Assembly (NCBI GenBank): GCA_963832165.1
Contig: CAWHTE010000007.1
Span: forward strand, 352,001 to 416,000
DNA length: 64,000 nt
DNA from: an uncultured delta proteobacterium
Lineage (GTDB): Bacteria > Myxococcota_A > UBA9160 > SMWR01
Direction: 5' to 3'
Below, piece by piece: positions 6,706-53,814 of this stretch. The stretch's first letter is position 1; the number at the start of each line of letters is the position of its first letter. The notes beneath the pieces were generated by a model that worked only from the letters and a program-made list of their open reading frames with translations, ran no database searches and was not told the origin of the DNA. The translations under genes and the position numbers were made by a program.

Positions 6706-6760
6706 GCCTTCGCTCGGCTCCGCCTCGCTGCGCGTCGGCCGACTTCGTCGGCCTCCTTGC
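6706..6760 (-). repeat. dispersed repeat, subtype B
   Basis: Minus strand gcaaggaggccgacgaagtcggccgacgcgcagcgaggcggagccgagcgaaggc; near-identical to 46373-46427 and 48016-48080. Confidence 0.9.
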
Positions 6761-7255
6761 TCATGCCCCGCCTGATGGTCTTCGCTCGCCTTCGGCTCGC
6801 TGCGCGAAACTTGCGGCCTCGATCACCTCGCGCGGCGCCTGCACGAGCTCGATCAGCACGCCCTCGCCACCGTTCTTCGGGTGGATGAAGCAGACGTCGT
6901 GCCCGGCCGCGCCCTTGCGGATGCCGCCCGGCGTGAAGCGGACGCCCTGGGCTTCGAGCCACGGCACCGCCGCGGCGAGGTCGTCCACCCAGAGTCCGAC
7001 ATGGTTCAGCGCGGGGTCGTGCACCTTCGGCTTGCCGTTCGGGTCGATCGGCTGCATCAGGTCGACCTCGACGCGGTGCGGACCCGCACCCGCCACCGCG
7101 ATGTCCTCGTCGACGTTCTCGCGCTCGCTGCGGAACTCGCCCTCGAGCGTGAGGCCCAGGAGATCGATCCAGAGCCGGCGCAGCGCGAGCTTGTCGGGCC
7201 CACCCACGGCGATCTGCTGCAATCCGAGCACCTTGAACGGTCGCGCCGCCATCAC
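6761..7255 (-). CDS. VOC/glyoxalase family protein (methylmalonyl-CoA epimerase-like)
   Basis: [35 protein letters not shown]-terminus encoded by the repeat. Confidence 0.85.
6777..6816 (-). repeat. dispersed repeat, subtype A (40 bp)
   Basis: ccgcaagtttcgcgcagcgagccgaaggcgagcgaagacc, identical to 11690-11729 and 51563-51602. Confidence 0.95.
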
Positions 7256-7863
7256 TCGCTTCCTCCATCGAAATCAGTCCCGATCCAGTAGCGCTCGGTC
7301 GTGCCCTTGCGGCTCGCGTCCGGGCGCAGCGAGCGCGCGCTCGCGAACCGAGCGCGCAGGCGCTGCTCCGCGGCCTGTGCCTCGGGACCCTCCATGAGCT
7401 TGAGCACGAGCGAACCCCCGCGCCGCAAAAGATCCGGCAGCGCGTCCTCGATCGCGGCGAGCAGCGACTCCTCGTGCGCGCGGTCCGTCGCGCGCACGCC
7501 CGTGAGCTTGGGCGCCGCGTCCGAGAGCAGCACGTCGGCCGGGCCGCCCGCTGCGGCGAGAACCGCTTCCCGGACCGCGGGTTGCGCGAGATCGCCCACT
7601 AAAGCGATCGCGTTCGCAAACTCGAGTGCGGGCTCGATCGCGGCCAGATCCACGCCCACCACGCGGCCCGTGGGCCCGACCTCGCGCGCGGCCACCTGCA
7701 TCCAGCCGCCCGGCCAGCAGCCGAGGTCGATCACGCGCTGGCCGTGCCGGAGCACCGACGTGCGGCGCTGGATCTCGATCAGCTTGTAGGCCGCGCGCGA
7801 GCGATAGCCCTCGCGCTTCGCGCGCTGGTGGAAGGAGTCCTTGCGCTGGTAGGGGCGGGCCAT
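7252..7863 (-). CDS. rlmE: 23S rRNA Um2552 2'-O-methyltransferase
   Basis: [39 protein letters not shown]. Confidence 0.92.
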
Positions 7864-7878
7864 GGCCGGCCCCGCGGC

Positions 7879-8523
7879 CTACCCGCGGGCCTTCACCGAG
7901 GCGCGAACGCGCACCACCCCGTCGTTGTGGCCGGGAACACCGCCGCGCACGAACAGCAGGCGCTTCTCGGGGTCGACGCGCACCACCTCGAGGTTCAGCG
8001 TGGTGACGCGCGCGTCGCCCATATGGCCCGGCATGCGCAGGCCCTTGATCACGCGGCCCGGGTACGAGCCGGGGCCGATCGAGCCGCCGTGGCGAAAGAC
8101 TTCGTGGGTGCCGTGGGTGCGCTTCTTGATCGAGAAATGGTGCCGCCTCACCACGCCCTGGTAGCCCTTGCCCTTCGAGGTGCCGATCACGTCTACGCGC
8201 TGGCCCGGGCTGAAGATGTCGACGGCGATCTCCCCGCCCACTTCGTACTTCTCGAGCTCCTCCGCGGGAACTCGGCTCTCGCGCAGCGCCTTGGGCGGCG
8301 GCACGTTGGCCTTCGCCGCGTGTCCCTGGAGCGGCTTGTTCGCGTGGCGCTGCGCGCGCTCGCCATAGCCGAGCTGGAGCGCGCTGTAGCCGTCGCGCTC
8401 GAGCGTCTTCTTCTGGACGATCCGATTGGGCTGCGCGTCCAGCACGGTGACGGGGATGCACTCCCCGGCCTCGTTGAAGAGCTGGGTCATGCCGATCTTG
8501 CGGCACATGAACTCGATCGCCAC
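7879..8523 (-). CDS. rplC: 50S ribosomal protein L3 (outside the S10 operon)
   Basis: RKIGMTQ, DGYSALQLG, SKGKGYQG, PGRVIKGLRMPGHMG, RGGVPG; GTG start inferred. Confidence 0.95.
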   Translation of the reverse strand: MAIEFMCRKIGMTQLFNEAGECIPVTVLDAQPNRIVQKKTLERDGYSALQLGYGERAQRHANKPLQGHAAKANVPPPKALRESRVPAEELEKYEVGGEIAVDIFSPGQRVDVIGTSKGKGYQGVVRRHHFSIKKRTHGTHEVFRHGGSIGPGSYPGRVIKGLRMPGHMGDARVTTLNLEVVRVDPEKRLLFVRGGVPGHNDGVVRVRASVKARG

Positions 8524-8640
8524 GGGATGCCTCGGAGGCCCGGAGGGTTGGGGCCTGGAAGGGGAAAGAAGGGCGCCCACTATAGAAAGTGACCCGGGGG
8601 CTGTCGAGCGGGTCCCGGCGGGGAAGGGATCGCTTCCCGG

Positions 8641-9282
8641 CTACGGGACCTCGCGCACGAGCAGCCCCGTCGTCGACACGCGCACCTCGTAGCTCGCGGC
8701 GCGGTCCGCGCGCGTGAACGTGCTCGAGCCGTACTCGGCGTCGACGAGCGGAGCCAGCCACGGCAGGCGCGCGCGCCACGCGAACAGATCGACGCGGTGC
8801 TCGGGCGAGAGCGGGAACACGGTGCGCGGGCGCTGCTGCTCGTCTTCGATCCGCGTGTAGCGCCCCGTGACGCGGTCGAGCTCGTACGCGGTGTGGAGTC
8901 CGAGCAGGTTCGCCCAGGGATGCCACTTCAGGATCCGCGCCTCGATCGCGAACTGATCGCCCGCGAGCACGTAGTTGGCCTCGCTGCCGTCGGGCAGCAC
9001 GATCCGCGCCTCGAACGCCTGCGGGCCGGTCGGCACGGTGTAGACGGTCGCCGCGAGCTCCTCGAACGTGAGCGCGCGATAGCCCGACAGGCCCGCGATC
9101 ACCACCGCACACAGCGCGCTCGCCGCGAGCAGCGCGAGCGCGAGCAGCAGCGAGAGCGCGCCCGCGCCGAGCCGCATGGCGCCGCGCGGCGAGCGGCGCA
9201 CCAGCGCGATCGCCACGACCGCGCACAGCGCGGCGCTCGCTGCGCACAGCGCTGCGGCGTAGAACAGCGGATCGAAGGTCAT
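8641..9282 (-). CDS. hypothetical membrane-anchored protein
   Basis: Two N-terminal TM segments, then a soluble domain (LAGDQF, LKWHPW, DAEYGS); start overlaps the upstream stop. Confidence 0.65.
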   Translation of the reverse strand: MTFDPLFYAAALCAASAALCAVVAIALVRRSPRGAMRLGAGALSLLLALALLAASALCAVVIAGLSGYRALTFEELAATVYTVPTGPQAFEARIVLPDGSEANYVLAGDQFAIEARILKWHPWANLLGLHTAYELDRVTGRYTRIEDEQQRPRTVFPLSPEHRVDLFAWRARLPWLAPLVDAEYGSSTFTRADRAASYEVRVSTTGLLVREVP

Positions 9283-9881
9283 GCGCGCGCCTCCCGAAGC
9301 ATGCGCCAGATTACGGGACCGCCCTGGATCGCGAGCTCGCCCAGCACTCGGAACCCGTGGCGCTCGTAGAAGGGCACGTTCGCGCGTTTCGACGACTCGA
9401 GATAGGCCGGAACGCGATCGGCGTCACAGCGCGCGAGGATCGGCGCGAGCAGCGCCGACCCGACGCCGCGGCCCTGGTGGCGCGGATCGGTGCCGAGCAC
9501 CGCGAGATACCAGTGCGGCTCGAGCGGATGCGCGCGCTCGATCCGCGCGAGCTGCTCGCCCACCGCGCGGGCGCGGCGCCCGAGCGCGGCGTACCAGCGC
9601 ACCGCCATCGCGAGCCGCTCCCCCAGCGAGGGAATCTGCGGGTAGGGCGGAACCCAGAACGACGCACCCTCGCGCGCCTCGGTCGTGAACACGCTCTCGT
9701 GTCGCAGCATGTCGCCCATCACCATCGCGAAGAACGCGTCGCTCGCGATCGCCCAGTCGAATTCGTTCGGCAGGATCCAGCGATGGACCGGATCGTCGCG
9801 AAACGCGCGCGCGAGTGCGAGCGACACCGCGCGCAGGTCGTCGGCGCGCGCGTTGCGCACGCACGGGGCCGGCAGGTTCAC
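9279..9881 (-). CDS. GNAT family N-acetyltransferase
   Basis: HWYLAVLGTDPRHQGRGVGSALL, AYLESS, NVPFYERHGF. Confidence 0.9.
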   Translation of the reverse strand: MNLPAPCVRNARADDLRAVSLALARAFRDDPVHRWILPNEFDWAIASDAFFAMVMGDMLRHESVFTTEAREGASFWVPPYPQIPSLGERLAMAVRWYAALGRRARAVGEQLARIERAHPLEPHWYLAVLGTDPRHQGRGVGSALLAPILARCDADRVPAYLESSKRANVPFYERHGFRVLGELAIQGGPVIWRMLREARA

Positions 9882-10372
9882 TGCGGCGCGCTCGCAGCGA
9901 ACGGCGCGTCGCAGCGGTGGGTGTCGCGGATGCGGCGCAGCGCTTCGAGCGAGCCGCCCCAGCTGCGCCAGCCCGCCTCGACCGCTTCCCAGCCGCGCGC
10001 CGCGACTACGCCGTCGCGGAACACCACGGGCACGTCGTCGACCTGGACGTCCGGGCAGCCCTCGGCGCTGCGCGCGGCCACCACGTAGACCTCGATCCGC
10101 AGCGAATCTCCGGTGGGCGTCTCGAGCGAGACCTGTCGCAGCGGGCTCGGAAACGGTTCCGCGGGGTGCCCGGGCCGGTGTACCGGATCGCGGCCCAGGA
10201 TCGCGTGGGCCTCCACCGCGCTCTGGCCGACCGCGACTCGCTCGACGCGCGCGCGCATCGCGAAATCCTGGATCGCGGCGGACTCGCGGGCACCCTCGCG
10301 CGCACTCCCGGACGCGCAGCCGAGCGCGGCGAGCGCGATCGCGGCCGCGCGCGCGTACCCTCTGCACCTCAT
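9878..10372 (-). CDS. putative lipoprotein (DUF3192-like)
   Basis: Lipobox ALGC; VPVVFRDGVVAARGW resembles the DUF3192 C-terminal motif. Confidence 0.55.
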   Translation of the reverse strand: MRCRGYARAAAIALAALGCASGSAREGARESAAIQDFAMRARVERVAVGQSAVEAHAILGRDPVHRPGHPAEPFPSPLRQVSLETPTGDSLRIEVYVVAARSAEGCPDVQVDDVPVVFRDGVVAARGWEAVEAGWRSWGGSLEALRRIRDTHRCDAPFAASAPQ

Positions 10373-10387
10373 CCCAGGAGACTAGCC

Positions 10388-10849
10388 ATGCGAAACCGCC
10401 GTGCGCTCCCGTGCGCACTCGCGATCTCTCTGCTCCTGCTCGCGGCCGCGCCCGCGAGCGACCCCGCGCCTACCGTGGACGCACTGCTCGGGGCGCAGCG
10501 CGTGCGCATACCGCTCGCCGCGCTCGCCGAACGCGCGCCGCTCGCGCCGCAAGAGGACTTCCGCGTCGTGGAGCTCGGGCGCGACACCGCCACGAGCCAC
10601 CACCTCGTCGCGATCCGCGGCGCGGAGAAGCCGCACCGCCACGATCGCCACGACCTGTTCGTGGTGGTCGTGCGCGGGCACGGCACGATGCGGATCGGCG
10701 ATGCCGCGCTGCCGGTCGGCGAGCACAGCGTCCTCTACGTGCCGCGCGGCACCGTGCACGCGTTCGCGAACGAGAGCGGCGGGCCCGCGCTCGCGTACGT
10801 GCTCTATACGCCGCCGTTCGACGGCGTGGACCGCGTCGACGCGCGCTAG
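10388..10849 (+). CDS. exported cupin domain protein
   Basis: Signal peptide; PHRHDRHD and VPRGTVHAF cupin motifs. Confidence 0.8.
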   Translation: MRNRRALPCALAISLLLLAAAPASDPAPTVDALLGAQRVRIPLAALAERAPLAPQEDFRVVELGRDTATSHHLVAIRGAEKPHRHDRHDLFVVVVRGHGTMRIGDAALPVGEHSVLYVPRGTVHAFANESGGPALAYVLYTPPFDGVDRVDAR

Positions 10850-11127
10850 ATCTCGTTTACGTGGACGATCGTCGGCGCTCCGGCGATCAGCGCGCCGAAC
10901 TGCGCGCCCACGCTCGCGAGGTTCTTGCCGTGGATCTTGAGGGCCTCGTCGCTCTCGTACTTCTCGTACAGGATGAACGTGGTCGGATCGTCCTTCCGCT
11001 GGTGCGGCAGATAGACGAGCGTGCCCTTCTCCTTGGCGAGCGTGTCGGCGGCCAGCTGCTTCAGGAAGCTCTTCGCCTCCTCGACCTTGTCTTCCTTCAC
11101 CTTGATCGTCGCGACGATGCTGGGCAT
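10846..11127 (-). CDS. antibiotic biosynthesis monooxygenase (ABM/YgiN-like) protein
   Basis: EKGTLVY, FILYEKYESDEALKIH; ribosome-binding site aggag upstream. Confidence 0.85.
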   Translation of the reverse strand: MPSIVATIKVKEDKVEEAKSFLKQLAADTLAKEKGTLVYLPHQRKDDPTTFILYEKYESDEALKIHGKNLASVGAQFGALIAGAPTIVHVNEI

Positions 11128-11301
11128 CGGGGGGTCTCCTGTGCTTTCGGGCGCGTGAGGGGAGCACGGTCGCAGGCTCGGTGACCCCGCGTCAAGCGCC
11201 GGGTACCCTCGGCCGAGAATCTCGAGAAGGACTCGCCTCGCACCCCCCACCCCCAGGTGGGCGGTGTCGGGGCTTTCGTGCGTGCGCGCACAGGAAGTTC
11301 G

Positions 11302-14949
<3,648 letters not shown>

Positions 14950-25501: not shown

Positions 25502-25544
25502 GCTAGCCAACGCCTCCGCGAGCCTCAACGCACTGCGGCAAGTC

Positions 25545-26864
25545 TCATGGACTTCGCTCGCCTTCGGCTCGCTGCGCGAAACTTGCGGCCCGAAATGCCG
25601 CGCGCGCAGCGGAGATCGTGGCGGCGATCTGGGCCGGACGGTGAGCGAGCGAGACGAAGCCCGCCTCGAAGGCCGAGGGCGCGAGATAGACGCCCGCGTC
25701 GAGCATCGCGGCGAAGAATCGGCGGAAGGCCGCCGCGTCGGCCTTCTTCGCATCCGCGAAGTTGCGCACGGGCCCCGCGTGGAAGAAGAAGCCGAACATC
25801 CCACCGATCGCGGCGGACGTGAACGGAACCCCGGCTTCGGCCGCCGCGGCCGCGAGACCGTCCGCGAGTGCCCGGCTCGTCTGCTCGAGCTGCGCGTAGA
25901 CGCGCGGCTTTGCGAGCCGGTCGAGCGTCGCGCAGCCGGCCGCCATCGCGAGCGGGTTGCCCGAGAGCGTCCCGGCCTGATAGACGGGCCCGTCGGGCGC
26001 CATGCGGTCGAGCAGCTCGGCCGGACCGCCGTACGCGGCCGCGGGCAGGCCCCCGCCCACCACCTTGCCGAGGCAGGTCAGATCGGGTGCCACGCCGAAG
26101 CGCTCCTGCGCGCCGCCGCGCGCGACGCGGAAGCCCGTCATCACCTCGTCGAAGATCAGGAGCGCGCCCGCGCGCGTGCACAGCTCGCGCAGCCCGGCGA
26201 GGAAGCCCGGCTCCGGCAGCACGAGGCCCATGTTGCCCGCAACCGGCTCGACGATCACGCACGCGATCTCGCGTCCCCAGCGCGTCATCGCATCCGACAC
26301 CGCGCCGAGATCGTTGTAGGGTGCGGTCACGGTGAGCTCGGTGAACGCCTCGGGCACGCCGGGCGAGCCCGGGATCCCCAGCGTCGCGACACCGCTGCCT
26401 GCGCCGACCAGCAGCGCGTCGGCGTGGCCGTGGTAGCAGCCCTCGAACTTGAGGATCCGCGGCCGACCCGTCACCGCGCGCGCGAGCCGCAGCGCGCTCA
26501 TCGTCGCCTCGGTGCCCGAGGAGACGAAGCGCACGCGCTCGATTCCGGGCACCGCGGCCACCACGCGCTGCGCGAGCGCGGTCTCGAGCTCGGTCGGCGC
26601 GCCGAAGCTCGTGCCGTGGCGCAGCGCCGCGCGCACCGCGCGCAGCACGTCCGGATCCGCGTGCCCGAGGATCATCGGGCCCCACGACCCCACGTAGTCG
26701 ATATACACGTTGCCGTCGGCGTCCCAGATCCGCGCGCCGCGCGCGCGCGAGATGAAGCGCGGCGTCGCGCCGACCGCCCCGAACGCGCGCACGGGGCTGT
26801 TCACGCCGCCCGGGATCACGCGCCGCGCGCGCTCGAACAGGCGCCGCGAGCGTCCCGTCTTCAC
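25545..26864 (-). CDS. hemL: glutamate-1-semialdehyde 2,1-aminomutase
   Basis: [45 protein letters not shown]; repeat-encoded C-terminus. Confidence 0.96.
25549..25588 (-). repeat. dispersed repeat subtype A encoding the HemL C-terminus
   Basis: 39/40 identical to the consensus; encodes [14 protein letters not shown] before the stop. Confidence 0.95.
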
Positions 26865-29373
26865 GCGGTGCCGCTGCCCGGCTCCGGGACGTCCCGCTCG
26901 GCCAGGCGCGCCATCGACACGATCTTCTCGTCGTCCGCGAGGTTCATGATCCGCACGCCCTGGGTCGCGCGGCCCATCGTGGAGATGCCCGCGACGCGCG
27001 CGCGCAGCACCTTGCCACCGTCCGTGATCAGCATGACCTCGTCGTCGTCGACCACCTGCGCCACCGACACGACCGGCCCGTTTCGCGCGGAGGTGCGGAT
27101 CGTGATGATGCCCATGCCACCGCGCCGCTGGACCCGGTAGTCCTCGAGCGGCGTGCGCTTGCCGTAGCCGCGCTCGGTCACCGTGAGCACGGTCGCGACG
27201 GGCGAGAGGATCTCCATTCCCACCACGCGGTCGCCCTCGCGCAGCATCATGCCGCGCACGCCACCCGCAGCGCGTCCCATCGCGCGCACCTGCTCTTCGG
27301 GGAAGCGGATCGACTTGCCGTCGCTCGTCGCGATGATCACCTCGTGGTGGCCGTTGGTGCGGCACGCGGCGATCAGCTCGTCGTCGTCGTCGAGTGTGAT
27401 CGCGATGATCCCGCCGCGGCGCGGGTTCGAGTACGCGTCGAGGCGCGTCTTCTTGATCACGCCCTTGCGCGTGCACAGAAGCACGTAGGCCTCTTCGTCG
27501 AACGCCCGCACGGGCAGGGTCGCGCGCACGCGCTCGCCGTCGGCGAGCTGGAGCACGTTCGCGAGCGATTTGCCGCGCGCCGCGCGCCCGAGCTGCGGCA
27601 GCTCGTGAACCTTGAGCCAGTGCGCGCGTCCGCGCGTGGTGAAGAACAGGATGTAGGCGTGGGTCGAGGCGATGAACAGGCGCTCGACGAAGTCCTCCTC
27701 GCGCGCCTCCATGCCCTTCACGCCCTTGCCGCCGCGGTGCTGCGCGCGGTACTCGGTGAGCGCGTTGCGCTTGATGTATCCGTGGTGGGACACGGTCACG
27801 ACCATGTCCTCCTCGACGATCAGGTCCTCGGTGGTCAGCCCCTCGACCGCCGCGGCCAGCTCGGTGCGCCGCTCGTCGCCGTACTGCTCGCGGATCTCGG
27901 CGAGCTCCTCGACCACCACCTCGCGGATCTTCTCGTCGCTCGCGAGCAGGGCCTTCAATTCCTCAATCTTTGCGCGCACCTCCGCGAGCTCGTCCAGCAC
28001 GCGCTGGCGCTCCATCGCGGTGAGCGAACGCAGTCGCATTTCGAGGATCGCGTTGGCCTGGCGCTCGGAGAGCTCGAAGCGGGTGATCAGCGCCGTGCGC
28101 GCAGCGCCCGTGTCGTCGGCTCCGCGGATGATCGAGATCACCTCGTCGAGGTGGTCGAGCGCGATCGCGAAGCCCTCGAGCAGGTGCGCGCGCGACTCGG
28201 CCTGCGCGAGGTCGTAGGTGGCGCGCCGCACCACCACCTCGCGCCGGAAGTCGATGAAGTGCTGGAGCGCCTCCTTGAGCGGCAGCGTCTGGGGCCGGCC
28301 GTTCACGAGCGCGAGCAGGTTCACGCCGAAGGTGGTCTGCAGCGGCGTCTGCTTGTAGAGCTGGTTCAGCACCACGTCGCCGGGCGCGTCCTTCTTGAGC
28401 TCGATCACGACGCGCATGCCTTCGCGATTGCTCTCGTCGCGCAGGTCGCCGACGCCGTCGATCTTGCCCTCGCGCGCGAGCTCGGCGATCCGCTCGAGCA
28501 TCGACGACTTGTTGACCATGAAAGGGATCTCGGTCACGACGATCCGCTCGCCGCGCTTGGTCGTCTCCATCTCGGCGCGCGCGCGCACGGTGAGCAGACC
28601 GCGGCCCGTCGCGTAGGCGGAGCGAATCCCCTCGTGGCCGCAGATGATCGCGCCGGTCGGGAAATCGGGTCCGGGCATCTTCTCGAGCAGGTCGTCGAGC
28701 GTGCAACCGGGGTTGCGCACGACGAGCGTGATCGCGTCGATCAGCTCGCGCAGATTGTGCGGCGGCACGTTGGTGGCCATGCCCACCGCGATCCCCGAGG
28801 AGCCGTTCGCGAGCAGGTTCGGGAAGCGCGACGGCAGCACCACCGGCTCCATCATGCCGCCGTCGAAGTTCGGCACGAAGTCGACCGTCTCGCGGTCGAT
28901 GTCGCGCAGCATCTCCTCGGCGAGCCGCGTGAGGCGCGCCTCGGTGTAGCGGTAGGCGGCCGCCGGATCGCCGTCGATCGAGCCGTAGTTGCCCTGGCCG
29001 TCGACGAGCGGGTAGCGGAGCGAGAAGTCCTGGGCCATCCGCACCATCGAGTCGTAGACGGCGCTGTCTCCGTGCGGGTGGTAGTGCTTGAGCACCTCGC
29101 CGACCACGCCGGCCGACTTCGAGTAGCCGCGCGTCGAGAGCAGCCCTTCCTGCTGCATCGCGTACAGGATCCGCCGATGCACGGGCTTCAGGCCGTCGCG
29201 CACGTCGGGCAGCGCGCGGGAGACGATCACCGACATCGAGTAGTCGAGGAACGAGCGCCGGACCTCGTCCTCGATGTTCACGGGCGGCGAAAACGGCTCC
29301 GACGGCGCCCCCCGCCCGGCGGCGGGGGCTCGGGCGGCTGGGGCGGGGGCGTGATCTCGATCCCGTCACTCAT
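26861..29373 (-). CDS. gyrA: DNA gyrase subunit A (one-base frameshift near the 5' end, likely assembly error)
   Basis: [32 protein letters not shown], GyrA box QHRGGKG; one extra G in the G6 run at about 29308-29313 joins ATG 29373 to the main ORF. Confidence 0.96.
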
Positions 29374-29376
29374 GCT

Positions 29377-29416
29377 GGTCTTCGCTCGCCTTCGGCTCGC
29401 TGCGCGAGACTTGCGG
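29377..29416 (-). repeat. dispersed repeat subtype A filling the gyrB-gyrA spacer
   Basis: 39/40 identical to the consensus; abuts the gyrB stop and ends 3 nt before the gyrA ATG. Confidence 0.95.
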
Positions 29417-31857
<2,441 letters not shown>

Positions 31858-32012
31858 ATCGCGGAGTTCCCAGGGCTGCGGCGGCGGTGAGCCGCGCGGG
31901 GGAGCGGGGCGGCCCCGAAGTTCGTGGGCCGGCCGGAGAGTAACGGAAGCCTAACCCGGGGTAAAGGCTCTAACTATTCGAATTGACAGGGAGAATCAAG
32001 CGCGAGCCACGC

Positions 32013-33136
32013 TCAGAGCCGCATCGGCATTACGACCGCGAGCGCGTCGCGTCGTCGCTGGGCGAGAGCTCTGCGGGCGACAGCGCGTCGCGGAACCCGA
32101 AGCGGATTTCCTTGCTGCGCGCGGCCGAGACGGCGTCGATCAGATAGCGCGCGTTGAAGGCGATGCTCGTGGTCTCGCCCGCGTAGTCGACGTCGAGCTC
32201 CTCGCGCGCATCGCCGAGATCGGGATTGTTCGACGACAGCCGCATCTGGCCCTCGGAGAGTTCGAGCTTCACCGCTCTGCTGCGCTCGGCCGACAGCAGT
32301 GCGACGCGGCGCAGCGCGTGCGTGAACACCTCGGTCGGCAGCGTGAGCTGCTGACCGTGCTCACTCGGGATCACCTGGCGGTAGTTCGGGAACTCACCCT
32401 CGATCAGGCGCATCGTGAGCGTGACGGTGCCCTTGCGCGCGAGACCGTTGTTGCCCTCGAAGCCGATCTCGATCTCGTCGGCGTCTTCCTCGTCGACGAG
32501 CTTCTTGAGCTCGGCGAGGCCCTTGCGCGGGATGATCACGCCCGCGTCCGCGAGCGAAGTGAGGCTCTCGCCGAGTGCGCGGTCGACGTAGGCGAGGCGA
32601 TGACCATCCGTGGCCACCATGCGCAGCTTGCCGGTCTCGGCGATCCGCTCGACGAAGACGCCGTTCAGGTTGTAGCGGGTCTCGTCGGTCGAGGCCGCGT
32701 ACATCGTGCGCTCGATCATCTCGGACAGCACCGCCGCGGGAACCGTCGCGAGTGATTTGGGCGCGAAGTTCGGCAGGCTCGGGTATTCCTCGGCGGTGGT
32801 TCCCGCCAGCGTGAACTCGGCACGCGCACAGCGCAGCGTCAGATAGGCGTTGCTCGAGGCCTCGAGGTGCACCTTCTCGTCGGGAAGCTCGCGCACGATC
32901 TCGTGCAGCTTGCGCGCGGAGACCGTGAGGCGACCGGCTTTCGCGACCTCGCACGCATGCGAGCTGCGGATACCCACTTCGAGGTCGGTTGCGGCGAGCT
33001 CGAGCGAACCGTCCTTCTTGCCAGTCACCTCGAGCAACGCGTTGGCCAGGATCGGCATCGTGTTGCGCTTCTCGACGATCGACTGGATCCGGCCGAGGCC
33101 GCGCTGGAACTCGCTCTTCTCGATCGTGAACTTCAT
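32013..33136 (-). CDS. dnaN: DNA polymerase III beta clamp (frameshift near the 3' end)
   Basis: ATDLEV, STDETRYNLNG, VATDGHRL, LIEGEFPNY; canonical end VVMPMRL lies in another frame after about 32050. Confidence 0.95.
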
Positions 33137-33139
33137 GGC

Positions 33140-33310
33140 TGGTCTTTCCTTGCCAGAGAGCTGTGTTTCTTTCTTCTCTGGTGCTTTCTCGACCTTCAAC
33201 AGTAGTAGGAAGAAGGGTGCGCCGGAGGACAGAACTCAGTCAACGCACCGACGGCGCACGGACTTCTAGGCTCGCCGGGGAGCCCGAACGATCTGTGCAG
33301 AACCCCCCGA
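33140..33310. other. candidate oriC-like segment (A/T-richer stretch plus DnaA-trio-like run)
   Basis: caa cag tag tag gaa gaa at 33197-33214 followed by a GC-rich spacer; only degenerate DnaA boxes (e.g. tgtgcagaa at about 33294). Confidence 0.35.
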
Positions 33311-33521
33311 ACGGGAGTGATCCTCTGCGCAGATCACTCCGTCGAGGCGATGGTACCACGCGAGTCGTGCCGGAGATTCGATTTCGCGTCGCAGATTGCA
33401 TGCGAATCCGATCGGTTGACATGCACTCGGAGCCGCGGCAACGTTGCCGCCTCCCGCGTACCGGGCTCGCTGTGGCCGTAGGCCTCCAGCGCTTCACCGG
33501 CTGACTCCAAGGTCCGTACTC

Positions 33522-40645: not shown

Positions 40646-41204
40646 TACGCGCTGCGATCTGGACGGTGCTGGCGATGATGGCTTCGGCGGCCCCCGCGAG
40701 CGCGGCCGACGAGGGGGGCCTGCTCTACCCCACGATCAACTTCGTCCTGCTGATCGCGGTGCTCATCTACTTCGCGCGCAAGCCGATCCAGGCCTTCTTC
40801 AGCGACCGCCGCACGGCGATCCGCAAGGACCTCGACGAGGCCGCCGCGATGAAGCGCCAGGCCGAAGAGCGCTATGCGCAGTGGCAGCGGAAGCTCGTGG
40901 ATCTCGAGCGCGAGCTCGCGGAGATCCGCGCCGGTTCGCAGGAGCGCGCCGAGGCCGAGCGCGCGAGCCTGCTCGAGGACGCGCGCGCCGCGGCCGAGCG
41001 GATCCGGTCCGATGCGGCGACGGCGGTCGAGCACGAGCTCCGCCGCGCGCGCACGCGGCTGCGTGAGGAGGCCTCGCAGCTCGCGATCGAGCTCGCGGCC
41101 GGGATCCTGGGCGAGCAGGTCACCGCGCAGGACCGCAACCGCCTGATCGACGAGTTCATCGAGCGCGTGGCGACGCGCGCCGCGAGCCGAGGCGAGCGAA
41201 GTAG
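40642..41204 (+). CDS. atpF: ATP synthase F0 subunit b (as assembled it reads through into atpH)
   Basis: INFVLLIAVLIYFARKPI...DRR; TAG at 41202-41204 is in frame only if one base is restored in the repeat copy. Confidence 0.8.
41177..41201 (+). repeat. degenerate core of the dispersed repeat at the atpF/atpH junction
   Basis: gcgccgcgagccga-ggcgagcgaag versus core gcgcagcgagccgaaggcgagcgaag (1 substitution, 1 deletion). Confidence 0.75.
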
Positions 41205-43310: not shown

Positions 43311-43311
43311 C

Positions 43312-45718
<2,407 letters not shown>

Positions 45719-45719
<1 letters not shown>

Positions 45720-46123
45720 TGCCGATCGATCTCACGATCGTGACGCCGTCGGGGCCCGCCTATCGCGGCGACGTCGACTCGGTGGTCCTGCCCGGCAGCG
45801 AGGGCGACTTCGGCGTGCTGCCCGGGCACGAGCGCTTCCTGACCGCGCTGCGCCCGGGCGAGATCCAGATCAAGACGGGCAACCAGACGATCTACGCCGC
45901 GTCGTCGCCGGGCTTCGCGGACGTCTCGGGCGAGCAGGTGACCGTGCTCGTCGACGCGTGCGAGCTCGCGGCCGACATCGATCCGGCGCGCGCCGAGCAG
46001 GCGCGCCAGCGCGCGGAGCAGGACCTGGCCGGATCCGGCAGCTCCGACCCCGCGCGCGCCGCGGAGCTCCAGGCGGCGCTCGAACGCGCGAACAATCGCA
46101 TCGCGGTGAGCCAGCGGAAGTAG
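45719..46123 (+). CDS. atpC: ATP synthase F1 subunit epsilon
   Basis: IVTP, GDFGVLPGH, C-terminal helical hairpin. Confidence 0.95.
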
Positions 46124-46157
46124 GCCCCGGGCCGCGGGCGTGCGATGCTGGGCGAGC

Positions 46158-47441
46158 ATGCATTCCGCGCCCCAACCCCTCCCCGAGCGATCCGGCGCGT
46201 TCGGCGGCTTCATCGGCCCGCGCACGCTCGTGTCGCTGGTCGAGAGTGCGTTGCCGTGGCTGCTCGCGCCCGCGTTCGCGCAGCGCGCGGGAGTCGCGGC
46301 GCCGAGCGGGGATGGGTCGCTGCACGAGCTCGCCGCGGGTCCGCTCGGCTGGTGGCGCGTGCTGCGCGCAGTGCAAGGAGGCCGACAGAGTCGGCCGACG
46401 CGCAGCGAGCCGGAGGCGAGCGAAGGCGCGCCCCTGCAAGATTGGCTCGCACCGAGCGAAGTGCCCACCCCGGAGCAGCGCACCGACTACTTCGCGCTCT
46501 GCTTGGCCGCGCACTTCGCGAGCGCGGCGAGCTTCGTGCCCACCGACGTCGATACCAAGATCCGCCGCGCGCTCTGGCGCGAGGCCGTGGGCACGCCCGA
46601 GCTCGCGCGCATGCGCGCGCTCGCGCTCGGGCTGTCGGCGTGGGACGTCTCGGCGGTGTCGGCGCGCCAGGTGCAGACTCCCGAGGGCGTCGTCTCGGGC
46701 CACGATGGCGAGCGGCTCTCGGTGCTATGCGGCGGGCTCATCGCATCGCTGCGTGCGCAAGAGAGCGAGGGCGCGGCCGAGCTCGAGGCCGCGATCGAGG
46801 ACGAGCTCGCGCGCGAGGCGCGCGCGTTCGCGGAGCTCGAGCGTGCGCGGGGGTCCGAGCTCGATCTGGTGCGGCTCGCCGGCGTGCTCACGCACAACGC
46901 GGGCGACGTGATGCAGGGTCTCGCGGGCGCGGGAAAGGCGAGCCTGCTCGTGGAGCGCTTCGGCGACCTCGCGCGCACGGGTGTCTCGCGCTACGGCGGG
47001 GCGTTCGGGCGCGCGGCCGCTCTCTACCGCGCGCTGCTCGCGAGCGAGGGCCACCGCAACTACCCGCTGCGCGGGCCGCGCGCGCTCCGGCGCGTTCCCG
47101 AGCTGTTGCTGCCGATCGCGCCGCTGCTCGACGACTGGGGCGAGCGGATCGCGCGCGTGCGCGAGCTCACCGCGCGCGAGCGCGCCGAGATCGTGGAGGC
47201 GCTCGCGCTGGGCTGCACGAAGCTTCCGGGCCAGCAGGGCTACTACCGCGCGCTCGCGGGCTACGCGCGCGCGAGCGCGCGCGGGCTCGAGGCGCCCGAG
47301 ATCGCCGAGCACGTCGCGGCGTCGACGCGCCGCCTGCTGCGCGCGAGCGACCTGCGCCAGAAGATCGCCGTGCCGCGCGCGTCGTTCGAGTCGCAGCTCG
47401 CCAAGCGCGCGCGCTCTCTCCTCGCTACGCGGACTTCTTGA
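46158..47441 (+). CDS. hypothetical protein with an in-frame repeat insertion
   Basis: Long ORF with host-like codon usage; motif-like segments FVPTDVDTKIR, SGHDGE, HNAGD, EGHRNYPLR; family not recognised. Confidence 0.7.
   Translation: MHSAPQPLPERSGAFGGFIGPRTLVSLVESALPWLLAPAFAQRAGVAAPSGDGSLHELAAGPLGWWRVLRAVQGGRQSRPTRSEPEASEGAPLQDWLAPSEVPTPEQRTDYFALCLAAHFASAASFVPTDVDTKIRRALWREAVGTPELARMRALALGLSAWDVSAVSARQVQTPEGVVSGHDGERLSVLCGGLIASLRAQESEGAAELEAAIEDELAREARAFAELERARGSELDLVRLAGVLTHNAGDVMQGLAGAGKASLLVERFGDLARTGVSRYGGAFGRAAALYRALLASEGHRNYPLRGPRALRRVPELLLPIAPLLDDWGERIARVRELTARERAEIVEALALGCTKLPGQQGYYRALAGYARASARGLEAPEIAEHVAASTRRLLRASDLRQKIAVPRASFESQLAKRARSLLATRTS
46373..46438 (+). repeat. dispersed repeat subtype B, in frame
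   Basis: gcaaggaggccgacagagtcggccgacgcgcagcgagccggaggcgagcgaaggcgcgcccctgca. Confidence 0.9.
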
Positions 47442-47991
47442 CGCGCGACGCCTTGAGCCGCGCCTTGCCGTCCTCGATCTGGACGCGGAACGAGAACTCG
47501 GCCGATTCGCCGAACTTGGTGCGCAGCGCGTCGCGCTGCTCGGCGATGATCGACTCGAGCTTCTCGCGCGTGAGGCCGCTCACGCTCTCGCCGCACGTGC
47601 GCCGCGCGTCGACGTAGCTCTGGTAGAGATCGCCGGGGGTGGGCGCTGACACGGGAGGCACGGCCGCCGACTCGCCGGGCGCTTGCTGCTCGTGCAGCCG
47701 GGCCTTGAAGCGGTGCCGCTCGTAGGTACCCGCCTCGATCTTGCGCAACGTCTCGTCCCATTGGCGGCGGTACGCCTGGTAGCGCGAGCAGATGCTCGTG
47801 AACTTGAAGCGCGCCCCGGTGTTCTTGATCGCGGTGCTCGTGAGCTCGATCACGGCCTTGTTGATCTCGCTGCGCAGCTGCACCGGCTCGCGCGGTCGGT
47901 TGCCGAGGAAGTACTGGTCGTAGTCGCGTTTGAGCTGCGCGAGCTTGAACTCGAGCATGCGCAGATCGTCGTCGATCGCCTCGGTGGACAC
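47425..47991 (-). CDS. MXAN_5187 C-terminal domain-like protein
   Basis: LKRDYDQYFLG, RPREP, RFKF, LYQSYVDARR, FRVQIEDGKARLKA. Confidence 0.65.
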   Translation of the reverse strand: MSTEAIDDDLRMLEFKLAQLKRDYDQYFLGNRPREPVQLRSEINKAVIELTSTAIKNTGARFKFTSICSRYQAYRRQWDETLRKIEAGTYERHRFKARLHEQQAPGESAAVPPVSAPTPGDLYQSYVDARRTCGESVSGLTREKLESIIAEQRDALRTKFGESAEFSFRVQIEDGKARLKASRVKKSA

Positions 47992-48015
47992 GCGCGGCTC
48001 TCCCCGGCCATCCCG

Positions 48016-49955
<1,940 letters not shown>

Positions 49956-49959
49956 CGTG

Positions 49960-51039
49960 CTAGGCGTCGCCGCGCGCGACTTCGGGGCGCAGCAGCGGAG
50001 CTGCGCCACGTAGCCGGAATGCGGCGGCCTCGGCTCCACCCGCCGTCTCGCCGGGCTGGAGCGGATTGCCGTCCACCTCGAAGCCGGCCTCGCGGATCAT
50101 GCGGTAGGTGTCGGCGAGCGAGTCGCCGCGCGTGGTGAGATAGCCCTCGACGAAGAGCGAGTTCGCGGGCCAGAGCGCGAACGCCTCCATGCCGCGCAGG
50201 TGCCCTTCGCGCCCGCCTGCGGCGCGGATCTCCGCGCGCGGGTTCACGAGCCGCATCAGGCACAGCGCGCGCAGGCAGCGCTCGGGCGTGAGCGAGCCGT
50301 CCGACTGCACGGGGTTGCCGTCGATCGGGATCAGGAAGTTCACGGGGATCGACGGCACCTCGAGCTCGCGCAGCTTGAAGCTCACCTCGACGACATCGGC
50401 GCTCTGCTCGCCCATGCCGAGGATCAGTCCGCTGCACGCCTCGATGCCGCACTTCTTCGCGGCGACCAGCGTGCGCACGCGGTCGGCGTAGGTATGGGTC
50501 GAGCAGATCTCGCCGTAGTGCGACTCGCTCGTGTTCAGGTTGTGGTTCAGGCGGTCGAGACCCGCGTCGGCGAGGATGCGCGCGTGCTCCTCCTCGAGCA
50601 GACCCACCGAGAGGCACACCCCGATCGGGTAGCGCTGCTTCACCTCGCGGATCAGTTCGGCGAGCCGGTGCGTCATCGCGAGCGTCGGACCGCGCCCCGA
50701 CATCACCATGCAGTAGCGCGTCGCCCCCGCGCGTGCGGCGGCCTCGGCGCCCGCGAGGATCTCCTCGCGATCCTTCATCGCGTACTTGCGGATCGCCGAC
50801 TTCGAGTCGCGCGACTGCGAGCAGTAGCCGCAGTCTTCGGGGCACAGCCCGTTCTGCACGTTGTTGAGCACGTGCACCATCACGCGGCGGCCGAAGTGCT
50901 GCTCGCGCGGCGCGAACGCGGCGTGCAGCAGCGGCAGCAGCGCGACGTCGGGCCCGTCCAGGATCCAGTGGGCCTCGCTCTCGGAGGGCGGCTCGTCCGC
51001 CAGCGCGCGCGCCGCGAGTCGTTCGTACTTCTCGAACAT
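49960..51039 (-). CDS. bioB: biotin synthase
   Basis: Radical SAM motif CPEDCGYCSQS, NHNLNT, CSGLILGMGE, IPVNFL, YLTT. Confidence 0.96.
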   Translation of the reverse strand: MFEKYERLAARALADEPPSESEAHWILDGPDVALLPLLHAAFAPREQHFGRRVMVHVLNNVQNGLCPEDCGYCSQSRDSKSAIRKYAMKDREEILAGAEAAARAGATRYCMVMSGRGPTLAMTHRLAELIREVKQRYPIGVCLSVGLLEEEHARILADAGLDRLNHNLNTSESHYGEICSTHTYADRVRTLVAAKKCGIEACSGLILGMGEQSADVVEVSFKLRELEVPSIPVNFLIPIDGNPVQSDGSLTPERCLRALCLMRLVNPRAEIRAAGGREGHLRGMEAFALWPANSLFVEGYLTTRGDSLADTYRMIREAGFEVDGNPLQPGETAGGAEAAAFRLRGAAPLLRPEVARGDA

Positions 51040-51065
51040 GGGGGGTCTCCTCGGGTGGCGGGCCA

Positions 51066-51095
51066 ACCCTAGAGAGGGCACCCGACCCCTGTCAA
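51066..51095 (-). promoter_or_regulatory. sigma70-type promoter of bioBFD
   Basis: TTGACA-N18-TAGGGT on the minus strand; the -35 lies inside the BirA operator. Confidence 0.65.
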
Positions 51096-51120
51096 CCGCA
51101 GTCCCGATCGCGGTTTACAG
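51089..51120. promoter_or_regulatory. BirA operator
   Basis: ctgtcaacc-N14-ggtttacag inverted repeat upstream of bioB, matching the TGT(A/C)AACC-N14..16-GGTT(T/G)ACA BirA signal. Confidence 0.85.
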
Positions 51121-51175
51121 CGCCGCATCGCGCATTGCGCGGCTACTCTCGCGCGCAAGCTGTCCGGCGCGCAGT

Positions 51176-51213
51176 GCAAGTTTCGCGCAGCGAGCCGAAG
51201 GCGAGCGAAGACC
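51176..51213 (+). repeat. dispersed repeat subtype A in the radA leader
   Basis: 38-bp exact match; ends 12 nt before the radA ATG. Confidence 0.95.
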
Positions 51214-51225
51214 GAAGGGCATTGA

Positions 51226-52653
51226 ATGGGGCGCAGCCGCAGCGTGTACGCGTGCACCGAATGCGGCGCTCAGCAGCCGCGCTGGCTGGGGCGCTGCCCC
51301 GAATGCGGTGCGTGGTCGACTCTCGTGGAGGAGCGCGCGGTCGCGCCCGCCGAGCCGCGTGAGCTGATCGCGCGCGAGCCGCAGAGCGCCAAGCCGCGCC
51401 GGCTCGCCGAGATCGATGCGGACGCCGTGCCGCGCCTCGCGACCGGGATCGCCGAGCTCGACCGCGTGCTCGGCGGCGGCATCGTGCCCGGATCGGTCGT
51501 GTTGCTCGCAGGCGAGCCCGGAGTCGGCAAGTCGACGCTCGCGCTGCAGCTCGCGGCGGGCGCCGCAAGTTTCGCGCAGCGAGCCGAAGGCGAGCGAAGA
51601 CCATCAGGTGGGAGCAGCCGGCCCGTGCTCTACGTCGCGGGCGAGGAGAGTCCGGAGCAGATCCGGCTGCGCGCGGATCGCCTCGCGTCGCTGCCCGAGG
51701 CGCTCGTCGTGCTGCCCGAGACCTGCGTCGAGGCGCTCGCGGATCCGTGGCGCGAGATGCAGCCCTCGCTCGTGATCGTCGACTCGGTGCAGACGCTGCG
51801 CAGCGAGCGCATCGAGTCGGCGCCGGGCTCGGTCGCGCAGGTGCGCGAGTGCGCGGCGCTGCTCGCGGCGACCGCGAAGGCGCACGGCACCGCGCTCGTG
51901 CTGGTCGGCCACGTCAACAAGGAGGGCGCGATCGCGGGACCGCGCGTGCTCGAGCATCTCGTCGACGTCGTGCTCCAGCTCGAGGGCGACGGCTTCCACG
52001 CGTTCCGCCTGCTGCGCGCGCACAAGAACCGCTTCGGCTCGACGCAGGAGATCGGCGTGTTCCACATGAGCGGCGTGGGACTCGAGGCCGTGCCGAACCC
52101 GAGCGAGCTGTTCCTCGCCGAGCGCCGCGCGGGCGCACCCGGGTCGTGCATCGTGCCGTGGCTCGAGGGCAGTCGTCCGATGCTCGTGGAGATCCAGGCG
52201 CTCGTGGCGCCCGCGGGCTACGGCACCGCGCGCCGCACCGCGATCGGCGTCGATGACGCGCGGCTCGCGCTGCTGCTCGCGGTGCTCGACCGGCGCGCGC
52301 ACGTCGACCTGCTCTCGCGCGACGTCTACGTGAACGCGGTCGGCGGTGTGCGGATCCGAGAGCCCGGCGCCGATCTCGCGCTTGCGCTCGCGCTCGCGTC
52401 GAGCCGGCTCGATCTCGCGCTGCCCGCCGACGTGGCCGCGTGCGGCGAGGTCGGTCTCGGCGGCGAGATCCGGCGCGTGGCGCGGCTCGATGCGCGCGTT
52501 GCCGAGGCGGCGCGGCTCGGCTTCCGGCGCCTGCTCGTACCGGCCGGAGCGCAGGCCGCGCTCGCGTCGCCGCCGGGCGCCCTGCTCGTGCCCGTGAACG
52601 ATCTCGCCGAGGCCGTGGCGTGGCTCTCGTCCACGGCCGTTCACACGTCGTGA
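51226..52653 (+). CDS. radA: DNA repair protein RadA/Sms
   Basis: C4 zinc finger, GEPGVGKST, DSVQT, KNRFG, Lon-like C-terminal domain. Confidence 0.97.
   Translation: MGRSRSVYACTECGAQQPRWLGRCPECGAWSTLVEERAVAPAEPRELIAREPQSAKPRRLAEIDADAVPRLATGIAELDRVLGGGIVPGSVVLLAGEPGVGKSTLALQLAAGAASFAQRAEGERRPSGGSSRPVLYVAGEESPEQIRLRADRLASLPEALVVLPETCVEALADPWREMQPSLVIVDSVQTLRSERIESAPGSVAQVRECAALLAATAKAHGTALVLVGHVNKEGAIAGPRVLEHLVDVVLQLEGDGFHAFRLLRAHKNRFGSTQEIGVFHMSGVGLEAVPNPSELFLAERRAGAPGSCIVPWLEGSRPMLVEIQALVAPAGYGTARRTAIGVDDARLALLLAVLDRRAHVDLLSRDVYVNAVGGVRIREPGADLALALALASSRLDLALPADVAACGEVGLGGEIRRVARLDARVAEAARLGFRRLLVPAGAQAALASPPGALLVPVNDLAEAVAWLSSTAVHTS
51563..51602 (+). repeat. dispersed repeat subtype A, in frame in radA
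   Basis: Exact 40-bp copy, plus the atcagg tail shared with the 6777 copy; encodes [14 protein letters not shown]. Confidence 0.95.
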
Positions 52654-52702
52654 GCCCGCTAGTTAACCATTCGAATTTGCTGATCTTTTCAGCATTTTCC
52701 CT

Positions 52703-52732
52703 TTGACAGCGCGAGGCGAGTCGGGCTAGGGT
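52703..52732 (+). promoter_or_regulatory. sigma70-type promoter of the polyprenyl synthetase gene
   Basis: TTGACA-N18-TAGGGT, 9 nt before the ATG. Confidence 0.6.
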
Positions 52733-52741
52733 TTCGCAGCG

Positions 52742-53767
52742 ATGACGAACCGCTCGCCCGCCGCCGGCCCGGCCGGCTATGCAGCCGCGCTCGAGCGGCT
52801 CACCGAAGATCTCGCGCTCGTCGAGAGCGCGATGCGCGAGCAGCTCGTGTCGGCGAGCGAGGTGCTCTCGGCGCTCGGCGATCACGTGCTCGCCTCGGGC
52901 GGCAAGCGCATGCGGCCCGCGCTGCTCCTGCTCGCGGCCGAGCTCTGCAACTACACGGGGCCCCGGCGCATCCAGATCGCCGCGGCGGTCGAGCTGCTCC
53001 ACACCGCGACGCTGCTGCACGACGACGTGGTCGATCTCTCCGTGCTGCGCCGCGGCCGCCCCTCCGCAAACGCGCTCTGGGGCAACCGGCGCGCCGTGCT
53101 CGCGGGCGACTTCTTCTACGCGCGCGCCTCGTCGATGATCGTCGAAGACGGCGACCTCGACATCCTGTGGATCTTCGCCGACACGATCCGCAGCATGGCG
53201 GAGGGCGAGCTGCTCCAGCTCCAGCGCAGCTTCGATCCCTCGGTCACCGAGGCGCACTACTTCCAGGTGATCGAGCGCAAGAGCGCGGTGCTCCTGTCTG
53301 CGGCCTGCGAGTCGGGCGGGATCCTCGGCGGGGTCACGCGCGCCGAGCGGCGCCGGCTCGCCGAGTACGGGCGCGAGCTCGGGCTCGCGTTCCAGCTGCG
53401 CGACGACGCGCTCGACTACGAGGATCGCGAGGCCGATCTCGGCAAGCGGCCCTACGACGATCTGCGCGAGGGCAAGGTGACGCTGCCGCTCCTGCTCGCG
53501 CTCAAGCGCTGCTCGGCCGCCGAGCGCGAGGCAGTGGCCTCGCTGCTCAAGGCGGTGTCGCTGGTCCCCGACCCGGACGCTGCGGTCGCGCTCGATCTCT
53601 CGCCCGCGATCGAAGTGGTGCAGCGCTACCGCGGCGTCGAAGACACCGTGCGCCGCGCCGAGGAGCACGCGCGCCGCGCGCGCAACGCGATCGCTCCCTT
53701 CCCCGATGGAGGCGCTCAGAGCGACCTGCTCGCCGCTGCCGACTTCGCCGTCGCGCGCGATCGCTAG
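52742..53767 (+). CDS. ispB: polyprenyl diphosphate synthase (IspB-like)
   Basis: GGKRMRP, LLHDDVVD, RRG, FQLRDDALD, DLREGKVTLP. Confidence 0.9.
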   Translation: MTNRSPAAGPAGYAAALERLTEDLALVESAMREQLVSASEVLSALGDHVLASGGKRMRPALLLLAAELCNYTGPRRIQIAAAVELLHTATLLHDDVVDLSVLRRGRPSANALWGNRRAVLAGDFFYARASSMIVEDGDLDILWIFADTIRSMAEGELLQLQRSFDPSVTEAHYFQVIERKSAVLLSAACESGGILGGVTRAERRRLAEYGRELGLAFQLRDDALDYEDREADLGKRPYDDLREGKVTLPLLLALKRCSAAEREAVASLLKAVSLVPDPDAAVALDLSPAIEVVQRYRGVEDTVRRAEEHARRARNAIAPFPDGGAQSDLLAAADFAVARDR

Positions 53768-53814
53768 CAAAGCGCCGCGAAGCGGCGCACGCAGCGAGCC
53801 GAAGGCGAGCGGAG
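53767..53814 (+). repeat. dispersed repeat, hairpin subtype C, directly after the stop codon
   Basis: gcaaagcgccgcgaagcggcgcacgcagcgagccgaaggcgagcggag. Confidence 0.88.

Follow-up and report, generated by a model that had tools for sequence, protein, structure and literature searches.

A GCAAG-tagged hairpin repeat between and within genes of an uncultured delta proteobacterium

How does a short repeat come to be read, in frame, within genes such as mfd, radA, atpG and hemL? The question is raised by a 64,000-nucleotide stretch of DNA from an uncultured delta proteobacterium (GenBank assembly GCA_963832165.1, contig CAWHTE010000007.1, positions 352,001 to 416,000; the window, hereafter), in which an initial annotation, made from the sequence alone, had described a dispersed repeat invading essential genes. 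We analyzed this repeat in the genome that holds the window (G000; 5.5 Mb in 11 contigs, 89% complete, 70% GC) and in its relatives, to which the other G numbers refer; six congeners, G001–G006, served for the comparison of sites. The repeat is a real dispersed family. It is apparently undescribed, and its lifestyle is one already known. We regard it as probably a non-autonomous hairpin repeat of single-stranded DNA, of the repetitive extragenic palindromic (REP) or Betaproteobacterial repeat element (BRE) kind, moved by an enzyme and filtered by selection.

Copy number, anatomy and distribution

The genome G000 holds 177 cores with at most two mismatches, at 171 loci, and 187 with at most three; the ten cores at three mismatches are excluded from later counts unless all 187 are named. 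The reversed core pattern, searched as a control, gave no match at up to two mismatches and three matches at three. The initial annotation had listed 14 copies at 11 loci of the window; the motif was recovered in every interval, and the intervals number 12. The entire 26-nt core is present, with two mismatches at most, in eleven of the 14 copies; another two belong to nested composites (11661–11763 and 43907–44014), of which they are the outer, split halves, and the last is a truncated remnant (41177–41201). The six subtype A copies of the window, correctly described as nearly identical, match a 35-nt pattern with no mismatch, and 100 shuffles gave no match.

The unit consists of a GCAAG tag, a variable paired hairpin (subtypes B and C) or a short 4-nt module (subtype A), the core GCGCAGC-GA-GSC-GNA-GSC-GA-GCGRAG and a loosely conserved, purine-rich tail of about 13 nt, NCCATCRGGYGG, with its end near window position 51612. 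Copies are 45–110 nt long (about 48 nt for the subtype A unit) and were found singly, in direct tandem or nested. The tag stands at the 5′ end of 152 of the 177 G000 copies, where about 10 would be expected, and at 129 of 163 loci from GTDB genomes. Among 60 long 5′ modules, 53 are perfect hairpins; 18 different stems are represented and 36 modules have G-N-A loops, so that the repeat shows the compensatory changes typical of REP hairpins. The central pair of the core varies as well (C-G in 127, G-C in 45 and other in five of the 177 copies; 93, 69 and one, respectively, at the 163 GTDB loci), with a free middle loop base, but this variation reflects two lineages and therefore carries less weight than the 18 stems. 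Triloops of the G-N-A type are known for exceptional stability in single-stranded DNA. A candidate hairpin in the A tail showed no covariation, and ViennaRNA folds neither singled out the mini-hairpins nor favored one strand. Terminal inverted repeats are absent, subtype B alone having a weak TGCA...TGCA pairing. Neither target duplication nor flank pairing was detected among 58 non-nested A copies (largest z 2.7 in 180 direct comparisons).

Among 41 relatives, 24 carry the exact core, in 1–119 copies each; it is also present in 18 of the 38 class genomes and in two of 163 other genomes of the phylum. Repeat copies number one in G001, 70 in G003, 92 in G004, 33 in G005, 98 in G014 and 119 in G017, and G015 has none. 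A GTDB scan returned at least 128 stretches with the core; labels are known for 80 of them, and among the matches listed the records are mostly metagenome-assembled genomes labelled Myxococcota, Deltaproteobacteria or Spirochaetales. Of the subtype A 19-mer, G000 contains 68 copies, whereas 120 further genomes of the class contain none; subtype A recurs in G004, a genome outside that sample. This lineage-limited expansion is in line with the recent spread first proposed for subtype A. Metagenome contigs from four unrelated soil or sediment studies pile up on the element; they belong to relatives at 85–95% and have no clean joint at the element. Sequencing runs searched for the same strain contained at most 0.11 of its words in any run, and no RNA run was listed among the holders.

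A literature search, with most subscription papers and the consensus figures of PMC3733652 outside its reach, did not turn up any account of the repeat. Rfam likewise gave no match at gathering score in the window (one chance microRNA match, E 0.1, came from 43800–53900), in agreement with the initial failure to recognize a catalogued repeat. BLAST against plasmids and phages yielded nothing better than E 0.07. A set of 3,067 matches to Klebsiella plasmids proved, where sampled, to be a 26-nt chance match within ltrA. Two viral contigs hold one core each, and the one inspected was uninformative.

Empty sites, nesting and residence within genes

Both flanks were matched in congeners for 30 of all 187 cores. 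The orthologous site was empty in 19/19 comparisons with G001, 20/20 with G005, 7/7 with G002, 5/7 with G003 and 4/5 with G006; of 25 sites in G004, 19 were empty, four filled and two decayed. In the reverse comparison, of 28 sites that congeners have filled, some of them tandem neighbors, 21 are empty in G000. The congener sites being empty, the copies are therefore insertions, as expected of the dispersed non-autonomous repeat initially described. Their exact junctions are unreadable from the congeners because these are only 75–93% identical to G000. Length differences from the congeners are multiples of 3 in all 27 comparisons made at nine sites within genes, 45 nt being the commonest.

Nested copies provide many junctions at a known target. 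Among 100 A-pattern copies, 22 have the left half of another copy on one side and its right half on the other; three A-pattern copies, plus a fourth degenerate case, lie in the hairpin loops of a GTAG-tagged REP. The 20 nests that could be parsed share a single break site, after GCGCAGCGAG plus one or two bases; the target resumes mostly at GGC or GCC, having lost about five loop bases. The 5′ module and the 3′ tail of the outer copy agree in nine of nine typed cases. By a rough estimate, copies cover about 1% of non-coding DNA; therefore, survival alone cannot give 22% at one position. The nests could still go back to a few founder composites spread by conversion. The mfd and atpG loci are nested composites on the forward strand. 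At mfd (11661–11763) the central hairpin of a subtype C outer copy is split by a subtype A copy (11692–11739), with a net gain of 75 to 90 nt, in frame; the same Mfd loop is filled in G003 too, by a different subtype. At atpG (43907–44014) the outer copy is of subtype A and is split by subtype C; the net gain is in frame, amounts to 87 to 105 nt and falls in the loop that separates LLPF from YEIEP. Outside nests, hairpin loops are at most preferred as targets: six of 40 empty non-nested sites have a C-GNA-G mini-hairpin, versus 4% among 982 controls (P 0.007 in a post hoc test, one among four).

Contrary to the initial annotation, genes are not the main residence of the repeat. In the window, eight of 12 loci lie in or over coding sequence, and one more is ambiguous; in G000 as a whole, 66 of 171 loci do (39%, versus 85% expected from the coding share), and 61% are intergenic. 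Most copies inspected in other genomes are also intergenic. The coding share is 50/107 for subtype A versus 19/70 for the other subtypes. At coding loci, 61 of 66 copies are sense to the gene. Flank scoring gave 86 sense versus 15 antisense copies in G000 (70 of the 171 loci mixed or unscored) and 19 versus four at GTDB loci (most unscored). More than one sense frame is used in proteins, as had been noted; two are in use, and among 64 copies the frame reads RSEPKASE in 34, AQRAEGER in 25 and poly-basic in five (P 3e-5). The second sense-frame peptide is RSEPKASE or RSEAKPSE, and the antisense frames are more hydrophobic. The 40-bp unit is indeed free of stop codons in all six frames, a property lost in the unit of about 48 nt, whose tail adds TGA in one antisense frame.

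Gene-embedded copies lie in loops or at termini. The in-frame inserts proposed for Mfd, RadA, AtpG and HemL were upheld, and yet a scan of 21 host proteins, out of 27 internal calls, showed that hosts are not mainly essential genes: it gave, among others, PurH, a Sua5-family protein, biotin ligase, acyl-CoA enzymes and unknowns, and one protein that resembles a false fusion of two pantothenate genes. Taken together, the coding deficit, the sense bias, the loop and terminus sites, the avoidance of the poly-basic frame and the variety at the RadA loop lead us to regard survival under selection as the best reading of in-frame residence. Their peptides are probably tolerated passengers. Hairpin anatomy, sense-strand bias and nesting go beyond the initial annotation.

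The variety at RadA is instructive. The subtype A copy within radA (51565–51612, forward strand; its 3′ end set by loose metagenome contig ends at 51608–51612) adds 45 to 48 nt at a point past the helix that follows Walker A and ahead of the next strand. An alignment-based model rendered the insert as a longer helix plus a low-confidence loop (mean predicted local distance difference test score, pLDDT, 63); the single-sequence fold was unusable (pLDDT 39). Of 120 homologues, 10 have repeat-derived peptides at that loop, and two sense frames as well as antisense are represented: the insert is identical in three, in the other frame and three residues earlier in two, in tandem in one, a further variant in two and antisense in two. 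Because the inserts differ in frame, strand and variant, we infer that they arose independently. A metagenome RadA scan gave mostly distant loci. The AtpG insert was found in one of 120 homologues, namely the window protein. Bacterial gamma chains align in two pieces around its site and the chloroplast chain in one; we take the site to be the position of the chloroplast redox loop. Repeated insertions of the RadA type map where core proteins tolerate 15–35 extra residues, and repeat peptides inflate and confuse protein annotation across this uncultured class.

Mode of spread and kinship with known repeats

A structure-recognizing enzyme capable of nicking and strand transfer would act in trans on single-stranded DNA, reading the tag plus the hairpins and preferring G-N-A hairpin loops as targets without requiring them. 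Selection would then keep insertions of 3n net length, mostly 45 nt for subtype A, that use the two near-neutral, hydrophilic sense frames and sit in loops, at termini or just past stop codons. The enzyme may be a protein of the HUH/Y1 type, a proposal to which we give somewhat less than even weight.

Several observations weigh against such enzyme-driven movement. No mobilizer was found in G000 and the relatives searched, the assemblies being incomplete, and mobilization in trans, proposed initially, is unsupported in that form and stays conditional. None of the 12 Y1-transposase genes of G000 has a repeat within 1.2 kb (the nearest copy is 1.3 kb away), so that the RAYT/HUH gene flanked by the motif that the initial annotation had suggested looking for is not among them. 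Eleven of the 12 constitute one RAYT-like family, rejected as mobilizer: it was not found in G003, G004 and G005 and is present in the repeat-free G015. No GTAG, GTGG or CGTC tag stands at the hairpin foot or at the other end, and none of seven G000 pairs within 400 bp is inverted; other genomes have a few opposed pairs. Over 47 nt, 87 of 88 A copies are unique, and their variable modules are unlinked over long range: a block shuffle gave P 0.46, and plain shuffles of columns revealed slight structure (P 0.02 or less). A simple master-copy model would not lead one to expect this; either copies swap modules or every insertion makes the tail anew. The mini-hairpin is present at only those six of the 40 empty sites, and loop targeting is thus shown solely for nested cases. 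The sense bias extends to intergenic copies, where selection on peptides does not explain it. Coding calls came from a purpose-made gene caller run on an assembly with frameshifts, and some of them will therefore be wrong.

Other candidate mobilizers were tried and set aside. IS91 Y2 and DUF559 gave no match in G000, and GIY-YIG, which does not vary with copy number, gave one long protein, probably UvrC. No recurrent neighbor family appeared among 308 genes near copies, nor by eye in 19 stretches of other genomes.

Spread driven by the host without a dedicated transposase is an unlikely alternative. Hairpin tips would be nicked or would stall the polymerase, and template switching or short-tract conversion would paste a copy, with deletion of few target bases, shuffling of modules and randomization of the tail. 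The lack of a linked transposase, the small target loss without duplication and the unlinked variable modules all suit it, as does the resemblance of some empty sites to element ends (GCAAG similarity P 0.009). The sharp GCAAG end, conserved across the class, suggests sequence-specific recognition instead. Moreover, 34 of the 40 empty sites have no mini-hairpin, and Ku, rejected as a mobilizer, is present in the one-copy genome G001 and was not found in G014 and G017, which hold 98 and 119 copies.

It is improbable that a piece of transcript moves by reverse transcription or reverse splicing. RNA-mediated spread would account for co-orientation with mRNA and for an error-rich tail. Copies between co-oriented genes are 51 sense versus 21 antisense (P 5e-4). 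The orientation of the repeat does not switch strand across the probable replication origin on contig C7 (11+/8− to its left, 16+/8− to its right). However, no RVT_1 match was obtained in the six genomes searched for a reverse transcriptase (G000, G003, G004, G005, G013 and G014), antisense copies exist, at RadA included, and a group II intron match was a chance match within ltrA (E 6). Three-base G-N-A loops are, in addition, a stability motif of DNA rather than of RNA.

We find it very improbable that each copy is kept by selection as a cis element that benefits the host, be it a site of protein binding or mRNA structure or a ribosome-binding helper, with core identity reflecting function. 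Such a role would fit the contrast between the fixed core columns, which depart from consensus by 1.6%, and the tails, which are 48–58% identical. It would also fit the 17 of 54 copies that begin within 5 nt of a stop codon and the hexamer like that of Shine and Dalgarno in 53 of 177 tails versus 6% in the background. Against it, the sites are not conserved among congeners, G001 (95% complete) holds a single copy, copies shared with G004 decay in the core, and subtype A is absent from the 120 other class genomes. A sequencing or assembly artifact is scarcely credible, for although the frameshifts of G000, with gyrB in three frames, are typical of long-read assembly, the core recurs in dozens of independently assembled genomes and in the contigs of four unrelated studies, two other assemblies carry the identical RadA insert, and the gene-internal inserts stay in frame throughout.

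The enzyme-moved, selection-filtered hairpin repeat that we favor was compared with known systems from the accessible parts of the publications cited. By sequence, BRE (Hot et al. 2011, PMC3110155) is the closest relative and the only substantial link found. Its right half comprises GCAAG, a variable paired hairpin, GCGCAGCG and a TGGGGG tail (PMC3110155, List S1); judged by eye, tag, paired hairpin and GCGCAGCG are common to both repeats, and to call the present element unrelated, as was done initially, was too strong because of this shared module. One B. avium BRE copy agrees by eye with the start of a G000 subtype C copy at 19 of 20 bases, and one from B. bronchiseptica matches 19 of 20 bases of the atpG copy if one gap is admitted. 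Likenesses extend to direct tandem arrays, patchy loci, some copies wholly within genes, no known enzyme and no co-orientation with replication (PMC3110155), and three G000 copies are without the central hairpin, as in BRE. BRE differs in being about 90 bp long, in having a left half and T-rich ends that are absent from the G000 repeat, whose conservation begins at GCAAG, and in having no GSC-GNA-GSC-GAGCGRAG core. The accessible text of PMC3110155 reports neither nesting nor sense bias. The likeness could be convergence of GC-rich hairpins.

In-frame residence is not confined to Rickettsia, which the initial annotation had presented as the classic case: it is documented for Rickettsia palindromic elements (RPE), intragenic REPs, BOX and BRE (PMC3733652, PMC3184786, PMC10969869, PMC3110155). 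Repeats that enter proteins are thus already known, and the basic phenomenon is not new. The G000 repeat resembles RPE in being read in frame within unrelated conserved genes, with a recurring peptide (PMC10969869, PMC3733652), and in having empty orthologues. It differs in its GCAAG tag, its length and the 70% GC of its host genome, RPE-1 being about 150 bp and RPE-4 and RPE-6 being CGTC-tagged (PMC10969869, PMC3733652). Likeness in sequence to the RPE families (105–150 bp, CGTC tag) was sought indirectly: Rfam gave no match, no RPE-named NCBIfam model stood among the matches listed for 10 host proteins, and the repeat peptides were not found in four supplements of PMC3733652.

With REPs and REPINs the repeat shares a short hairpin, 100–200 copies that are mostly intergenic near stops, and a minority in frame within genes, DNA-repair genes included (PMC3733652, PMC6006769, PMC8049555). 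The GTAG REPs of G000 have similar GAA-loop tips and are targets of the GCAAG repeat. In contrast to this kind, the GCAAG repeat has no GTAG/CGTC tag, inverted dimers, REPtron or full-unit master sequence, and its coding share (39% of loci) stands against 6/55 for the G000 GTAG REP. The accessible part of PMC6006769 contains no GCAAG-tagged class. MIRU resembles the repeat in its 40–100 bp, direct arrays, ends over neighboring start or stop codons and lack of a known transposase (PMC12548453, PMC3184786), and perhaps in its habit of occupying operon junctions (PMC12548453), of which the ATGA overlap retained at window position 6764 is the one clear case here. It differs in its 4-bp direct repeats (PMC3184786), none of which were found here, and in start-codon insertion with a coupled small open reading frame, many G000 copies being deep within genes. 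MITEs differ in their terminal inverted repeats and target duplication, neither of which was found for the G000 repeat.

Primers published for a mycobacterial repeat other than MIRU (M. intracellulare; PMC10117815, Table 1) share GCAAG, GC-GNA-GC and ACCATC with the G000 element. We suggest, tentatively, that the G000 repeat, BRE and this mycobacterial repeat might form one GCAAG-tagged mini-hairpin superfamily across phyla, moved by an enzyme, or by a host pathway, distinct from both RAYT and DDE transposases, which opens a G-N-A loop and replaces about five bases, each copy having its own tail. The superfamily, if real, would supply a substrate and a junction rule for testing the spread of REP-like repeats that have no known transposase and would bear on how they add 13–35 residues to proteins. 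Junctions at a known target, with loop replacement and no duplication, are lacking in BRE, MIRU and RPE; those seen here bear on how these and other repeats with no known transposase might move. Loop-replacing nesting, the intergenic sense bias and the unlinked tails are new and testable.

Further copies in the window and side observations

On the reverse strand, a subtype B copy (6678–6760, the tail end being approximate) with GCAAG tag, 7-bp GAA-loop hairpin, core and long tail lies between a VOC-family gene and a methyltransferase gene. The ATG at 6764 overlaps the upstream TGA, and the copy is a possible in-frame N-terminal extension or otherwise intergenic. The adjacent subtype A copy (6767–6814, reverse) forms, in frame, the C-terminus of the VOC-family protein (6761–7252); G001 and G004 are empty there. 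The subtype A copy at the HemL C-terminus (25544–25586, reverse) provides the TGA through its tail, and this site has a decayed copy in G004 and is empty in four other congeners. Another subtype A copy (29371–29414, reverse) is intergenic: it follows the gyrB stop by 2 nt and immediately precedes the probable start of gyrA. The truncated degenerate copy (41177–41201, forward) lies at the C-terminal end of subunit b of ATP synthase (atpF), and a subtype B copy (46373–46438, forward) adds 66 nt, relative to G004, to a 427-residue protein of no known family. Over the bioD 3′ end, a subtype B copy (48016–48080, reverse) provides the TAG, its remainder being intergenic. A subtype C copy (53767–53826, forward) starts from the last base of a polyprenyl-synthase stop codon, where G003 has a copy of a different subtype.

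Upstream of radA, a subtype A copy (51176–51223, forward) sits between a conserved −10-like hexamer, a putative promoter element, and the ATG; four congeners are empty. The hexamer lies 7–9 nt ahead of the radA ATG in four congeners (window 51130–51228), a spacing that suggests a leaderless mRNA, and the G000 insertion parts hexamer and ATG by about 70 nt. At 3990–4010, G000 has the last 12 core bases and no full copy, and G004 is filled in frame; the site may be an element-like target or a deletion remnant. Between dnaN and rpmH (33136–33520) there is a gap of about 400 bp with one DnaA-box-like word and no dnaA. The gyrB gene (29417–31869), intact in G003, is in three frames, probably through assembly indels, and a HAMP-domain gene near 57974–63102 likewise looks frameshifted.

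Elsewhere in G000, two copies of an IS110-like transposase gene, its family read from the sequence, are 99.8% identical (C1:234286–235533 and C11:96667–97915). The solo RAYT-like genes (C2:485168–485860 and 10 paralogues) encode about 230 residues, score below the NCBIfam cut-off and have a common AT-rich upstream motif and no REP flanks; 7 of 40 relatives have 6–22 matches. The remaining Y1/RAYT gene is flanked by the GTAG REP (e.g. C4:535008–535983). This REP is a second G000 repeat family, with 55 copies of one form plus related forms; 49 of the 55 are intergenic and 41 are identical over 33 nt. An element of about 400 bp (C11:536548–536955, C3:443295–443716 and about eight more), 91–97% identical and MITE-like with no obvious open reading frame, has an internal inverted repeat, and one of its copies ends in a GTAG REP.

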